Notes: generated from the sequence alone by a model not told the origin. A DNA stretch of 64,000 nt from a virus (IMGVR_UViG_3300017917_002762:1-64000); one strand, 5' to 3'; counted from the first letter of the stretch, positions 6,888 through 14,205 are shown. Translations and numbers: made by a program.

Positions 6888-6899
6888 AAAAATACACCA

Positions 6900-7440
6900 A
6901 TTTCTTTGATATAGGATAAATGTAAGCCCTATAAAATGCTAAATATCTTAATTAGGATTAAACAGCAGCTATCAAAGTTTTAGGTGTAAAAAACATTGCA
7001 CAAAGTTGTAACTGAATCAATACTTATAATGACGTCTAAATAGTAATGATAGCAGTGCTAGAGACAAAGGTTAATGGTTTTAAACCAGGTTAGCTACTCC
7101 AATGTATGGTGGAGAATAATCCATGCTAAAATCCGTGTATACTATAACAAGCTGCGGATTACAATTAAGTGCAAAAACAGGTAGTTTGTTTGAAAGTTGT
7201 TCTGCCTTGGAGTAATCCTAAATTCAGTGAACTTTCAATGATGGTGAATTCTATCTAGGCTGATATATCTGAATATATATCCATTAAATATATTGTGACC
7301 AAAAGCGTCTTGACGAAGGGTAGCTCCCTTAGTTGCAATGTATTTAATGTCTAAGCATACAAGACTACCTACAGAGTTGTAAAAAATACTCACGGTGTAT
7401 GCGTTAAACCTTTATGGTGAACTAACAGTCAGCAAATCTT
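6900..7440 (+). ncRNA. Candidate large ornate ncRNA (~540 nt, ROOL/GOLLD size class)
   Basis: ORF-free and GC-enriched, with long-range complementary pairs 6904-6911/6970-6977, 6993-7000/7334-7341, 7066-7072/7407-7413, 7179-7185/7364-7370, 7190-7198/7230-7238 and 7282-7290/7341-7349. Confidence 0.6.
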
Positions 7441-7486
7441 ATTTTTAACCTTAAATTTTTCTGTTTCTGAAACAGTACCAAAAACC

Positions 7487-8407
7487 ATGAGAATACATTC
7501 TCTTTCAACAAAAGGCTTATCTTTGAGCCAAGCACAATCAATTAGTAACTTGTGTTTTCAAAGAGCTCAAGACATTTCAAACCTAATTTCAGGTTTAAAT
7601 AATGCTACTAAGTCTCTTAAAATAGGTCAAGAAACCTATATTGAGACTGTTGGTAAACCTCTTCCTGTAAATATTGTAGCATTATTGCAGGAAAAAGCAT
7701 TGCTACATTCTACTCAAGCTTTTTTAATGGAAAACATTAAAGCTAAAGCAGAAATGTTAGAAGAAAAACAAAAAATGAGCTTTAAAAGCACCATTGTTTG
7801 TCCTGAAATACCTAAGTTAGTTAAATTTGATGATTTTCTTCAAAATGTTAATGAATTTTGGGGATGGCAACAGTTATCTGTATCTGAATACAACGAGTAT
7901 TTAGAAGCAGAAGCTTATGCAGCACATATTGGTCAATTTATTCATAAAAATAGTCCTTTGGATGATCTTAGAAAAGAATTGTCTACTATGAAAACTCTTG
8001 AATGGATTACTATTAAAGATGGAGAAAAAACTCCTCTTAAAGTAGAAATTCATCATACTCCTGAGCAATTGTTAAAAGTTCACGAAGAACTTGCAGCATT
8101 GCATAGAAAGTATGAGCAACGTGTAAATTACTTCAAAGCTAAGGTTAAAAACCTGGTTACTGAACAAAACGCACGTATTGCAAAAATTAATGCAGAAGCT
8201 CAAGCTGAAATGAATGCACAAAACGCTGTTATTTCTAACAACTATGATACTGCTTATGGTATGTATCAACAAGAAGTTCTTAGAGAGCAACAAGAGTTTG
8301 AAGCACAAAGACAGAATGATATAAAAACCATTGCTGCTTTGAGAATTGATGTAGATCCACGCTTCCAATCTGTTATAGATACGTTTCTAAAACAGTTGGA
8401 AGATTAA
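7487..8407 (+). CDS. 306-aa helical/coiled-coil protein of unknown function
   Basis: Long Ala/Gln/Glu-rich amphipathic helices; no catalytic motif recognised. Confidence 0.85.
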   Translation: MRIHSLSTKGLSLSQAQSISNLCFQRAQDISNLISGLNNATKSLKIGQETYIETVGKPLPVNIVALLQEKALLHSTQAFLMENIKAKAEMLEEKQKMSFKSTIVCPEIPKLVKFDDFLQNVNEFWGWQQLSVSEYNEYLEAEAYAAHIGQFIHKNSPLDDLRKELSTMKTLEWITIKDGEKTPLKVEIHHTPEQLLKVHEELAALHRKYEQRVNYFKAKVKNLVTEQNARIAKINAEAQAEMNAQNAVISNNYDTAYGMYQQEVLREQQEFEAQRQNDIKTIAALRIDVDPRFQSVIDTFLKQLED

Positions 8408-8419
8408 TATATTAAAGGT

Positions 8420-8727
8420 GAAAAGAGGATAAGCACAAGCTGATTCCTCTTTTCTTTATGTCTGAATAACAGATTTAAATATATATAATGTAAAAAACTA
8501 CTAAGATAAGTTTTTCAGATTTGATCTGAAAAACAAAACCGCTTTTCTTACAAATTAAACAAAACTGAGATAGAACTCATCGTTAAACCAAGTTACTGAA
8601 ATCTTATTAAGTAAGCAGATAATTGGTTAACACAATGAGTCTTGGTTTTTGTCTTTGCCTTTGTAGTAAGAAAAGGTCTTTGATCTTGTTGTTGATTTTG
8701 ACATTTTCTATATATCTGTTATTCAGA
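8420..8727 (+). ncRNA. Candidate structured ncRNA directly downstream of the coiled-coil gene
   Basis: Hairpin 8420-8429/8445-8454; 14-bp closing stem 8461-8474/8714-8727; inner stems 8510-8520/8524-8534, 8542-8551/8666-8675 and 8575-8580/8635-8640; two G(N)3TT hexamer tracts. Confidence 0.7.
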
Positions 8728-8786
8728 TAACTTTTATGTTTTTTGCAAATTTTTAAAACTTCATAAAATAACAAGATTTGTAACAT

Positions 8787-9017
8787 ATGATTTTTTCAAA
8801 TGATTATCATGCAGGAATTGGTGAAATGGTTAATAATAATTTAATCAATTGTTTTGATAAATTTATTCATCGGTTTGGTCAAGAATCTTTCAATAGAATT
8901 ATTTTTGAAGGAGAAGCTGCTAATGTTGCATATGCATATATTCATCCTTGTGATGAAATGCGTAAAACAAAAAGATTTGATGAAATACAAAAAGCATTTT
9001 TTAATGCTTATGTATAA
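8787..9017 (+). CDS. Hypothetical protein
   Basis: 76 aa ORF. Confidence 0.55.
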   Translation: MIFSNDYHAGIGEMVNNNLINCFDKFIHRFGQESFNRIIFEGEAANVAYAYIHPCDEMRKTKRFDEIQKAFFNAYV

Positions 9018-9062
9018 AACAATTGTAATTTATTCTAAACAATAACCTAAGTAATCCAAGAT

Positions 9063-9516
9063 AACTTGAAACACGGTGTTTTAAGTTTTAAAACCAAGAG
9101 GTAACGTACCTCATTATGCAATCCGTTTTTTTAATCTTTAACACTTACACTCATAAGATTTGACCGTTTTATGAGTAAAAAATGTAAGAAATTACCACAC
9201 ATTTAACACCGAAAGGTGTTTAGGCTAAATAAATTTTGGTCAATAATGAGATAATTCATTATTAGATTTATGATGCCTAGTGTGGTCAGTTGAGTAAAAC
9301 TGTAAAATTTACTGCTGTTTAAATCTGTTCAGCAACCACAGATTAGTTGATTGATGGTGATTATCCACTTGATATTAACGTAAAGTTTTAAGCGTAACAT
9401 ATATTCATTTTATATTAGTTGTAATAGACTTAGAAACTTTATTGTTTGGTTCGTAGAAGATATATACGAGAAACAATATTGCAAGTATTCTCTATTACAA
9501 CTATATAAATGAATAT
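9063..9516 (+). ncRNA. Candidate structured RNA region (multi-hairpin, three-way junction, 116-nt terminal hairpin)
   Basis: Stems 9149-9156/9169-9176, 9194-9200/9280-9286, AACACC-GAAA-GGTGTT 9205-9220, 9221-9225/9275-9279, 9401-9410/9507-9516 and 9416-9428/9491-9503. Confidence 0.5.
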
Positions 9517-9578
9517 TTTATTTTTTTTTTCATTCATCATATTTAAAAACTTTTTTTCACACTTTTAAACATTTTTTT

Positions 9579-10007
9579 ATGATTAGAAACATTTCAAATT
9601 TGCCTTTTCCTCTAACAGTTATTAGTGTTATAACTGCTTTAAATTCTTTTGAAGAAGAATTTTATTTAACTGGTAGTAGATTCTTTGGAACTGAAACTGC
9701 TAATTCTGATTGGGATTTTTTTGTAAGTAAATATTATTTTAATGTTATAAAGAAATTATTAAATTTAGGATTCAAAGAAATTCCTTGTGAAAAAATGGTT
9801 GACTTAAGTTATGATATCAATCAATTTTCTACAATTTTAGAATTACGAGCTGTAGATGGAGTTATTCAAATTCAAATAATAGATAATATTCATTCTAAGA
9901 ATAGAGTGCAAGAAATTATTAAGAAAGAATATCTTTTTGAATTTAATAATATGACTAAGTCAGAAAGAAAGAAATTTTGGAGTTTGCTATTAAATATAGC
10001 AAGATAA
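9579..10007 (+). CDS. Minimal Pol-beta-family nucleotidyltransferase
   Basis: YLTGSRFFG...SDWDFFV (GS and DxD signature). Confidence 0.75.
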   Translation: MIRNISNLPFPLTVISVITALNSFEEEFYLTGSRFFGTETANSDWDFFVSKYYFNVIKKLLNLGFKEIPCEKMVDLSYDINQFSTILELRAVDGVIQIQIIDNIHSKNRVQEIIKKEYLFEFNNMTKSERKKFWSLLLNIAR

Positions 10008-11262: not shown

Positions 11263-11676
11263 ATGCAAAGATTTTTTGATAAAGTAAACAAAACTAATAC
11301 TTGTTGGTTATGGACAGCAGGATTAAGAGGTAAAACAGGATATGGTGCATTTAAATTTAATGGTAAAGTTATAGATGCTCATAGAGTATCTTATGAATTA
11401 CACAATGGAGTTATTCCTGATGGAATGTATGTATGTCACACCTGTGATAATAGAAAATGCGTAAATCCCAATCATCTATTTTTAGGTTCTCCTAAAGATA
11501 ATTGGCAAGACGGATTTGATAAAGAAAGAATTAAACCATTAGGAGGAATAGATATAGAGAAATTAAAAAAACATCCAAGTAGAGGTGCATACCTTAGAGG
11601 ATGTAGATGTGAAGAATGTAAAGCTATTAATAATATGATGGTTAAAAGATATAGAGAAGGATTAAAAAATAAATAG
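11263..11676 (+). CDS. Free-standing HNH (homing-type) endonuclease
   Basis: CWLWTA...GYG...AHRVSY...VCHTCDNRKCVNPNHL, with a C-terminal GCRCEEC. Confidence 0.9.
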   Translation: MQRFFDKVNKTNTCWLWTAGLRGKTGYGAFKFNGKVIDAHRVSYELHNGVIPDGMYVCHTCDNRKCVNPNHLFLGSPKDNWQDGFDKERIKPLGGIDIEKLKKHPSRGAYLRGCRCEECKAINNMMVKRYREGLKNK

Positions 11677-12312: not shown

Positions 12313-13440
12313 ATGGAAAATTTAAATAGCTGCTGCTATGTAGCAAAGATCAAAGAAATTGAATCAATTCCTGGTGCAGATAATATTGAACAAGTACTTA
12401 TTGGAGGATGGAATTGTATTACCAAAAAAGGTGAATATAATATAAATGACCTAGTAGTAATAGCAACCACAGATGCTATCATTCCTCAAAAATTATCAGA
12501 TGGATTAGGTATTACTAATTACTTACGTAAAGGTCAACGTGTAAGAACAGTAAAACTTCGTGGAGTTTATAGCGAGTGTTTAATTATTCCAATCACCTTT
12601 ATACCTGTAAAATACAGAACAGAAGGTACAGATTGTATGGAATTATTAGAAATCTTTAAGTATGAACCACCAGTTAAACAAGTACAATTATCATCAGGTA
12701 AAAAAATTAGATATCAATCTAATCCAGCTTTCCATGTTTATTATAAGTTTCCTAACTTAAAAAATGTACCTGGAATGTTTACTGAAACTGATTTAGTACA
12801 AATAACAAGAAAAATACATGGTACTAATGCTAGATATGGTATAATTAAAAAAATTAAATTATCATTTTGGGATAGAATTAAAAAGTTTTTAAGACTAGCA
12901 GATGAATGGATTGATTATGAATTTGTTGTGGGTAGTCATAATGTAGAGAAAGGTTCTGATTCTCAAGGCTTTTATGATACAAATGTTTGGTATGAAATTG
13001 CTGATAAATACAACATCAAAAAGAAATTATGGGATTATATTAAAGTAAGAAGTTCTATTGATCCTCTAGAAACTGGTGTTATTATTTATGGTGAAATATA
13101 TGGTGCTGGTATTCAAAAGAATTATAATTATGGTTTAAATGATCTTGAATTTGTTATGTTTGATATGACATGGAATAATCATTATGATTCTACAATGGTA
13201 ACAGAATATGCAGCTAATAATATTATAAAACTACCTCATGTACCTGTACTATATGAAGGACATTGGTCACAAAGTATTCAAGATACATTCGTATTTAATA
13301 ATTATATAGAAAACAGTAAAGTGCCTCATGAAGGTATTGTAATTAAACATATATCAGGTGAAAGAAACAAAGTGGCAAAAATTATTAATCCAGAATATTT
13401 AACATATGGTGAAAAACATGATATTGGTGATAATCACTAG
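12313..13440 (+). CDS. RNA ligase (Rnl2-like/DRB0094-type, with an N-terminal OB-like domain)
   Basis: Motif I TRKIHGTN, GEIYG, FVMFD, EGIVIK and AKIIN. Confidence 0.85.
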   Translation: MENLNSCCYVAKIKEIESIPGADNIEQVLIGGWNCITKKGEYNINDLVVIATTDAIIPQKLSDGLGITNYLRKGQRVRTVKLRGVYSECLIIPITFIPVKYRTEGTDCMELLEIFKYEPPVKQVQLSSGKKIRYQSNPAFHVYYKFPNLKNVPGMFTETDLVQITRKIHGTNARYGIIKKIKLSFWDRIKKFLRLADEWIDYEFVVGSHNVEKGSDSQGFYDTNVWYEIADKYNIKKKLWDYIKVRSSIDPLETGVIIYGEIYGAGIQKNYNYGLNDLEFVMFDMTWNNHYDSTMVTEYAANNIIKLPHVPVLYEGHWSQSIQDTFVFNNYIENSKVPHEGIVIKHISGERNKVAKIINPEYLTYGEKHDIGDNH

Positions 13441-13467: not shown

Positions 13468-14205
13468 ATGAATAAAATAATAATAATAGGAGATATTCAC
13501 GGAAGAGATATTTGGAAACAAATTATCAATATAGAAAATGATTGGGACAAAGTAATATTTATTGGTGATTATTTAGATTCATACGATATTCCAGGAATGA
13601 AACAATTAGAAAATTTAATGGATATTATTGAGTTTAAAAAGCAAAACTTAGATAAAGTTGTATTATTATTAGGTAATCATGATCATCAATACCAAAAGTT
13701 TTCACAAAATGAAATTTATAGTGGTTATCAAGCAGGAATAGCTTCTCAATTTCAATTTAAATTAGATGAATATAAACATTTATTTAAAATAGCACATCAA
13801 GAAGGTCAATATTTATTTTCTCATGCTGGTATAAGTGAAGAATGGTGTAATGATTCATTTGAAAATTGGAATATAGAAAATATTGTTAAAAGAGTAAATG
13901 AACTTTATCATTATCAACCATTTCATTTTAATATACAACCAGGTGAATCTCATTGTGGTCAAGAAACATATCAAGGACCACTATGGATTAGACCTAAGAG
14001 TTTAATGGCTGCTAATAAAAAAAGTGAATTAAAAAAAAGATTTATTCAAATAGTAGGACATACAAGTTATAAAACCATTGATATGGGTAAAGCAACAGGC
14101 GGTAGATATTATTTTATTGATACTTTAGAAAACGATAGAGGTGAATATTTAATTATTGAAAATAATACACCAAAAAAAGCATTTATAAAAAACAATTTAA
14201 ATTAA
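13468..14205 (+). CDS. Calcineurin-like metallophosphoesterase
   Basis: GDIHG, GDYLD, GNHD, HAG and GHT motifs. Confidence 0.9.
   Translation: MNKIIIIGDIHGRDIWKQIINIENDWDKVIFIGDYLDSYDIPGMKQLENLMDIIEFKKQNLDKVVLLLGNHDHQYQKFSQNEIYSGYQAGIASQFQFKLDEYKHLFKIAHQEGQYLFSHAGISEEWCNDSFENWNIENIVKRVNELYHYQPFHFNIQPGESHCGQETYQGPLWIRPKSLMAANKKSELKKRFIQIVGHTSYKTIDMGKATGGRYYFIDTLENDRGEYLIIENNTPKKAFIKNNLN

Follow-up and report, generated by a model that had tools for sequence, protein, structure and literature searches.

What does a virus encode where a protein gene runs into a folded non-coding stretch marked by a G every six nucleotides (nt)? The question is raised by positions 7487-8727 of the viral sequence IMGVR_UViG_3300017917_002762:1-64000. 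The whole 64,000-nt stretch that was analysed, called the window below, is the first 64 kb of a complete phage genome of 125,946 base pairs (bp) with direct terminal repeats and ~25% G+C. An earlier reading of the sequence alone (the original prediction) had described a coiled-coil protein followed by a non-coding RNA and had proposed a new ribonucleoprotein system. The present analysis suggests, with a probability of about one half, that the gene and the RNA make up an undescribed phage ribonucleoprotein module, in which two arrays of hexamers on the RNA serve as periodic protein-docking sites. The gene (7487-8407) and the RNA (8412-8735) are probably transcribed together.

The existence of the RNA is settled by comparative data. 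Folding of the stretch beats shuffled sequences on both strands, with z scores of -6.5 and -7.3 (about -8 in a separate run). The 14-bp inverted repeat in it is not significant alone (BLAST E = 0.15 within the genome), and good folding by itself could be chance or a DNA palindrome. Two IMG/VR contigs with 73-74% protein identity keep the non-coding stretch at ~90% identity. In a relative whose protein is 65% identical, the 14-bp stem has six double compensatory changes, and the first hairpin still pairs despite a changed sequence. A total of 166 loci with protein homologs were gathered from IMG/VR and metagenomes, 29-40 distinct copies of the RNA were aligned, and a consensus structure of ten helices was written. 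Over the full length, 88.4% of cells in this structure are paired compared with 75.0% in shuffles, a value reached by 0 of 500 shuffles. Double-sided changes occur at 47 of the 70 pairs, and sliding the partners by 1-3 columns lowers pairing to 38-52%. A covariance model of the 144-nt core finds one match per locus, always on the strand of the gene, in 95 of 99 sources. For 74 distinct sequences, core pairing is 94.3% (81.8% when shuffled, 37-55% in slid controls). Altogether, more than 90 distinct relatives contribute compensatory changes that support the helices.

The pairs also tell which molecule is under selection. G·U pairs outnumber A·C pairs by 146 to 38, which argues for selection on the transcript of the + strand and not on the DNA. 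A DNA palindrome or origin is rejected on this ground. A coding region is rejected as well, because no ORF (open reading frame) is conserved on either strand; the median longest ORF is 34 amino acids. The 31-codon ORF of the stretch, with its ATG at 8636, keeps this start in only 10 of 78 members, and 1-nt insertions and deletions fall between the two arrays. Both observations speak against a type I toxin-antitoxin system, in which a folded mRNA would encode a conserved small hydrophobic peptide. A repeated or mobile element is rejected because the RNA is a single copy in the genome, has no target-site duplication, and holds a constant place behind one gene in relatives. Nor is the stretch a group I intron that splits the gene: homologs stop at the same residue and the downstream ORFs are unrelated. 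On comparative sequence evidence, a structured and conserved non-coding RNA is thus confirmed at 8412-8735, in keeping with the original prediction, which had called for just such a comparison of homologs and their downstream DNA. Stems and 6-nt phasing are both kept across the family, and the prediction stands up to its own refuting case, that of homologous genes without such an RNA or phasing.

The ends of the RNA are placed where conservation and the outer helix stop. Conservation starts at the stop codon and ends abruptly a few bases past the 3' arm. No named RNA family covers the element. Rfam 15 at gathering thresholds gives 0 matches over the whole 64-kb window, with GOLLD, ROOL, OLE, HEARO, raiA, 6S, Y RNA, group I and II introns, tmRNA, and RNase P included. 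At a permissive E, positions 8350-9600 give only chance-level matches (E of 1 or more). No tRNA or tmRNA is found in the window.

Covariation shows the RNA as an irregular rod in its predicted fold. The rod is composed of an outer helix P0, a handle P1, a closing stem P2, the inner helices Px and Py, and an almost invariant core (Table 1). The closing pair of P0 is the invariant G8417-C8731. P1 has a conserved asymmetric internal loop with the nearly invariant sequence GCACAAGC, and its apex is a GC / ACAA / GC mini-hairpin (8433-8440). The original prediction correctly placed a hairpin 13 nt after the end of the gene and treated it as separate from the domain that follows. The hairpin is present; the separation does not hold, since the covarying P0 encloses P1. 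For the same reason P1 belongs to the RNA and is not merely a terminator. P2 contains the perfectly complementary 14 bp that had been predicted at 8461-8474/8714-8727, extended to 17 nt at 94%. Px and Py together have double changes at 17 of 18 pairs. The helices of the core are 78-96% paired, and in one clade helix A shows a double change from A-U to C-G.

Table 1. Positions of the gene, the RNA, and its parts, counted from the first letter of the window
Feature	Position	Strand	Partner	Basis or observation
Gene for the 306-amino-acid partner protein (unnamed family)	7487-8407	+		ORF and homologs
Whole structured non-coding RNA, ~325 nt	8412-8735	+		Conservation limits, outer helix, covariation
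P0, outer helix, 5' strand AAAG	8414-8417	+	8731-8734 (CUUU)	88% paired; 3 of 4 pairs changed on both sides
P1, handle hairpin, 10-bp stem	8420-8454	+		Double changes at all 10 stem pairs
P2, closing stem, 5' strand	8459-8477	+	8711-8729	Two helices, 98.7% and 87% paired; double changes at 13 of 14 pairs
Pv, variable branch hairpin, A/U-rich 5' strand, 11 bp in this genome	8510-8534	+		Replaced by unrelated GC-rich hairpins at the same place in relatives
Px, helix, 5' strand CUUUUCUUAC	8542-8551	+	8666-8675 (GUAAGAAAAG)	99.7% paired in 74 distinct sequences; double changes at all 9 pairs
Near-invariant core, CAAAACUGAG-AUAGAA-CUCA	8560-8579	+		Invariant columns
Helix A	8560-8569	+	8641-8651	Compatible, little covariation
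Helix B, after a 6-nt bulge	8576-8579	+	8636-8639	Compatible, little covariation
Py, distal arm with variable apical hairpin	8582-8631	+		99.3% paired; double changes at 8 of 9 pairs
Array 1, GUCUUG GUUUUU GUCUUU GCCUUU GUAGUA	8639-8668	+		Sequence and family profile
Array 2, GUCUUU GAUCUU GUUGUU GAUUUU GACAUU	8676-8705	+		Sequence and family profile

Both hexamer arrays belong to the 3' strand of the rod, one on each side of Px. Each has a G every 6 nt as originally described, at 8639, 8645, 8651, 8657, and 8663 in array 1 and at 8676, 8682, 8688, 8694, and 8700 in array 2. A profile of 87 distinct members gives the unit as G-N-N-u-U-u. At phase 0, G accounts for 82% and A for 13%; U occupies phase 4 in 98% and predominates at phases 3 and 5, and variation is greatest at phases 1-2. 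From this profile, the periodic signal is a U-(U/A)-G triplet every six bases, written U-W-G below. There are about four triplets in array 1 and five to six in array 2. About half of the members have 18 nt between the arrays, and most of the rest have 19 nt. A fixed mutual register is therefore rejected, and the two arrays are independent.

Pairing of the arrays is limited. In array 1, the second hexamer lies inside helix A and the next two lie in an internal loop, whose mean predicted pairing probability is 0.2-0.5. Array 2 has a predicted pairing probability of 0.3-0.7, against at least 0.9 in Px and P2. The best ungapped pairing of array 2 with the 5' strand covers 21.7 of 36 positions with its own partner, 21.8 with those of other members, and 22.0 with shuffled ones. 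Duplex energies are -12.1 kcal/mol for cognate, -11.6 for non-cognate, and -12.6 for shuffled partners. Array 2 is thus rejected as one strand of a member-specific helix, and, with pairing equal to that of controls, the arrays are available for a ligand. They seem to be exposed or, at the most, loosely paired with an A-rich strand.

The link between the RNA and the protein gene is almost obligate. The RNA lies directly downstream on the same strand in 159 of the 166 loci, and in most of them it starts 0-10 nt past the stop codon. Six loci have no match at threshold: three are cut off early, two represent one phage with a diverged copy, and one (L093) is without the RNA within 2.5 kb. The diverged copy (L023:3415-3945, identical to L024) has a large GC-rich insertion in the distal arm. 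A GC-rich terminator-like hairpin stands between gene and RNA in L023, so a terminator can separate the two in some phages. At L093:3394-3470 the gene is followed by a plain terminator-like hairpin and then by the next ORF. For a reverse test, IMG/VR was scanned for the invariant 15-mer ACTGAGATAGAACTC. The gene is upstream in every bona fide RNA copy for which sufficient preceding DNA is present (47 of 47). A further 19 loci with ACTGAGATAGAACTC were considered as gene-less RNAs and rejected as unrelated, mostly coding, chance matches. No conserved promoter-like block precedes the RNA in the 3' end of the gene, which is compatible with co-transcription. A run of U follows the 3' end of the RNA in 45 of 92 members.

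The protein of 306 residues belongs to a large family. Its homologs at E<=0.001 amount to 2495 clusters when grouped at 90% identity and to 401 when grouped at 50%. Nine residues of the family are invariant: N21, Q25, K87, G149, H153, R162, H206, N214, and I287. The AlphaFold2 model has a mean pLDDT (predicted local distance difference test) of 90.4 and a pTM (predicted template modelling score) of 0.83. It is made up of long helices, one of 54 residues, and two beta-hairpins, so that the description as a coiled-coil, all-helical protein was imprecise. In the model, these elements may be arranged as an internal duplication.

Searches for a relative outside the family return nothing usable. Pfam, PHROG, and NCBIfam have no family that is consistently matched by the protein alone or by 42 family members. 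A sequence profile search of the PDB gives nothing below E = 0.04, and a Foldseek search of the PDB with the model gives only helical matches at noise level. In the BFVD structure search, the model recovers its own family only. A VIA-align search with wide scope has a best Z of 7.7, which is within noise for helical models, and the ESM Atlas holds no usable match. Among the listed Foldseek and VIA-align matches there are no Cas5, Cas6, Cas7, or other RAMP chains, although a fold may be present without showing up in lists of this kind. TRAP and HutP folds are likewise absent from the listed structural matches, and Pfam is also without any such match. No RRM, glycine-rich loop, or thumb features were recognised in the AlphaFold2 model.

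Members of the family are found in contigs of 100-430 kb. Deposited phage genomes have no match to the module, either by DNA or by protein. In GTDB, the family is present in only five short contigs of metagenome-assembled genomes among 185,579 prokaryotic species. It is therefore a family of large phages that are uncultivated and apparently not temperate.

The ribonucleoprotein reading joins these observations as follows. The RNA would be the conserved centrepiece of the module, and the protein its cofactor. The co-encoded protein may recognise the handle, the core, or both. Several protomers, or another repeating partner, would then dock on successive triplets. The product would be a short filament of protein and RNA with the folded RNA as its scaffold, as for Vipr on vrRNA or TRAP on the trp leader. 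The phasing of the triplets calls for a ligand that repeats every six nucleotides, and several protomers of the co-encoded protein are the simplest candidate.

Several points weigh against this reading. The adjacency of the two genes alone is no proof of a complex. A host protein could just as well be the one that the RNA serves, or the RNA could act in cis on the mRNA. Pfam, Foldseek, and VIA-align recognise no RNA-binding domain or fold in the protein. L093, a distant homolog, lacks the RNA over 2.5 kb, and helix A takes up part of array 1 by base pairing. Without a fixed register between the arrays, one continuous filament across both is unlikely.

The closest parallel is VIPR. Two preprints describe Vipr protomers that oligomerise along a periodic RNA (bioRxiv 10.64898/2026.04.26.720920; 10.64898/2026.04.26.720927). 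Like the module studied here, VIPR is a minimal phage-encoded unit of one protein and an adjacent non-coding RNA. In both RNAs, a constant trinucleotide and variable dinucleotides alternate about 9-16 times, and a conserved structured part is attached. The unit of VIPR is 5 nt (GGY/NN; YNNGG with hypervariable NN), whereas the 6-nt unit here combines U-W-G with three further bases and has no GGY. The VIPR RNA is ~100 nt with a 3' tail; here two arrays are embedded in a 325-nt rod. Its partner is a RAMP with an RRM core, a glycine-rich loop, and a thumb, in contrast to the long helices and two beta-hairpins modelled here. Also unlike VIPR, each phage has one RNA with only moderately variable positions, and a low-power search found no target in the genome of the phage itself.

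TRAP (MtrB) on the Bacillus trp leader and HutP on the hut leader bind rows of (G/U)AG or UAG triplets in single-stranded RNA, with one subunit of the oligomer per triplet. Both resemble the present case in having triplets at a regular short spacing, and the two repeat sets of HutP parallel the two arrays. However, TRAP and HutP are small beta-rich ring proteins that act in attenuation on mRNA leaders. The protein here has 306 residues and is mostly helical, and the RNA is free-standing, ornate, and 3' of the gene. No homology of the protein to TRAP or HutP was found. The module appears to belong to neither the VIPR nor the TRAP family.

Other large or repetitive RNAs are more distant. GOLLD (RF01998) and ROOL (RF03087) are also large, conserved, structured RNAs of phages and prophages and typically lie beside tRNA genes. 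They are at least twice as long as the RNA here, which has no Rfam match. Their complexes are made up of RNA alone (bioRxiv 10.1101/2024.12.08.627333), and no partner gene is dedicated to them. CsrB and RsmZ, which are bound by CsrA, and CrcZ, which involves Hfq/Crc, likewise present many copies of a short motif on one folded RNA. Their motifs are located in hairpin loops or A-rich stretches and are not strictly phased, and no dedicated protein gene is adjacent, unlike here. Retron and DRT systems need a reverse transcriptase, and the genome here has no match to PF00078.

Sponge RNAs with repeated motifs, such as CsrB and CrcZ, are established, and the arrays could titrate or recruit an abundant host protein that binds single-stranded RNA, for example a cold-shock protein, Hfq, or RNase E. 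In that case the protein encoded next to the RNA would be only a helper or mechanistically unrelated. This sponge or decoy is unlikely overall. In its favour are the richness of the arrays in U and their lack of specific pairing. Array 2 also opens with a near-invariant unit, GUCUUUG, that is the exact consensus heptamer of CspB, and the units overlap as heptamers that share the G. The high-affinity consensus of Bacillus subtilis CspB is 5'-GTCTTTG/T-3' (PMC1904285; PMC7825780), with a preference for T at heptamer positions 2, 4, and 6 and C at position 3 (PMC1904285). The family profile departs from this preference, with U at position 5 in 98% and mostly A at position 2. Cold-shock proteins are also low in sequence selectivity (PMC7825780). 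The complete phage genome contains no cold-shock-domain gene, so any such partner would come from the host. A sponge for a host protein would leave the near-obligate link to one phage protein unexplained. Another rival is a cis-acting 3' untranslated element in the mRNA of the protein, which would stabilise it against 3' exonucleases or provide an autoregulatory site for binding by the protein and have no function in trans. The RNA begins within 10 nt of the stop codon in most loci, lacks a conserved promoter, and keeps to the same strand in every locus, and the U-run past its 3' end would suit such an element. Yet 325 nt, five or more covarying helices, an almost invariant core, and conservation above that of the protein far exceed the needs of known stabilisers and operators. 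The periodic arrays would also have no role. A purely cis function is quite unlikely.

A further reading is a repeat-coded guide, in which the protein would hold U-W-G and the variable dinucleotides would read a nucleic-acid target in a gapped code. This would be VIPR-like in function, with an unrelated protein and a 6-nt unit. The constant triplet with a variable dinucleotide follows the layout of YNNGG in vrRNAs, the most variable positions are phases 1-2, and about 9-10 repeats fall within the vrRNA range of 9-16. A structured conserved part flanks the arrays, like the vrRNA tail. Against it, NN is only moderately variable and almost fixed across the family in array 1, and there is one RNA per phage and no array of different guides. 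Gapped complementary sites are not enriched in the genome of the phage with skips of 0-4, in a search of low power, and no RAMP-like features are apparent in the model. A guide of this kind is improbable. A more specific version is a long shot of similar standing, in which a second, RAMP-independent class of repeat-coded ribonucleoprotein exists. Its new helical protein would polymerise on U-W-G at 6-nt spacing, and the exposed bases would recognise a conserved nucleic acid of the host or of a rival element. A template for synthesis by a polymerase, or an element acting as DNA (an origin or packaging site), is very improbable. With its repeats and a stem that brings the 5' and 3' ends together, the RNA has a superficial likeness to those of retrons and DRT systems, and both strands fold equally well in silico. 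For a DNA element, the excess of G·U over A·C pairs points the other way. For a template, a PF00078 search of the complete 125.9-kb genome at E<=1 finds nothing, while control genomes do give matches. The original prediction had noted that the window contains no reverse transcriptase, which extends to the whole genome, and had also raised a template for iterative synthesis. Templated synthesis is rejected for want of this enzyme, and the nucleotidyltransferase-like ORF nearby is not conserved with the module.

That ORF (9579-10007) had been described as a minimal nucleotidyltransferase 0.85 kb downstream. It matches Pfam Polbeta only at E = 0.054 and is beside the module in 0 of the 166 loci; it is therefore not part of the system. 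The remaining neighbours are the usual phage genes, including an HNH endonuclease, RNA ligase, metallophosphoesterase, thymidylate synthase, helicases, and DNA polymerase. None of the flanking genes of the window is conserved with the module among the 166 loci. An RNA ligase lies near the module, 1.2-1.9 kb downstream, in 16 of them, and both it and the nucleotidyltransferase are rejected as obligate partners. The window itself has a cassette that resembles RNA repair genes, composed of the HNH endonuclease (11263-11676), the RNA ligase with an OB domain (12313-13440), and a calcineurin-like phosphoesterase (13468-14205).

Genes for tRNAs are frequent companions of the module. They are located within ~2.5 kb in 108 of 159 loci (68%), and all 568 tRNAs are co-oriented with it, most of them upstream. 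The complete 125,946-bp genome has no tRNA genes, so the module is independent of them. The module often stands at the end of phage tRNA arrays and sometimes near an RNA ligase, a loose hint at a part in RNA metabolism, in the takeover of the host, or in conflict among genetic elements.

The DNA on either side of the module has features of its own. No upstream leader is conserved family-wide beyond A/T richness. In this genome, ~600 nt without an ORF (6888-7486) precede the gene, and their folding is weakly above shuffles (z -2.2 on the + strand and -1.2 on the - strand). Close relatives share the last 42 nt of this leader (7441-7482) at 95% identity, and one contig matches 7179-7481 at 86%. 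Directly after the RNA is an ORF of 76 amino acids (8787-9017). ORFs of 76 amino acids also follow the RNA in three related loci (L007, L008, and L009). A tblastn search with the ORF of the window finds no similarity in any related locus, so the shared length is probably a coincidence. The next 560 nt (9018-9578), between this ORF and the nucleotidyltransferase-like ORF, contain no ORF. They fold above shuffles on both strands (z -4.9) and hold a perfect 13-bp inverted repeat (9416-9428 with 9491-9503). This stretch has no Rfam match and nothing similar in related loci.

Both parts of the module are without a name, without relatives by fold, and without a model in Rfam, and the literature search found no paper on the protein-RNA family. 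An October 2026 language-model survey of periodic intergenic arrays assigns 96% of periodic clusters to periods of 5, 18, and 60-79 nt. The module is abundant in uncultivated phages, as the cluster counts of its protein show. The strictly phased triplet arrays give it a concrete, testable handle. Large, highly conserved structured RNAs with a dedicated protein have often proved to be new machines, among them HEARO (the guide of IscB), bridge RNAs, and vrRNAs. The backbones of class 1 CRISPR systems have a 6-nt period, and the RAMP-independent class, if it is real, would be a convergent counterpart of VIPR and of these backbones. A complex that recognises nucleic acids would do so by a new logic, and one that sequesters a host factor would represent a new device of phage takeover.

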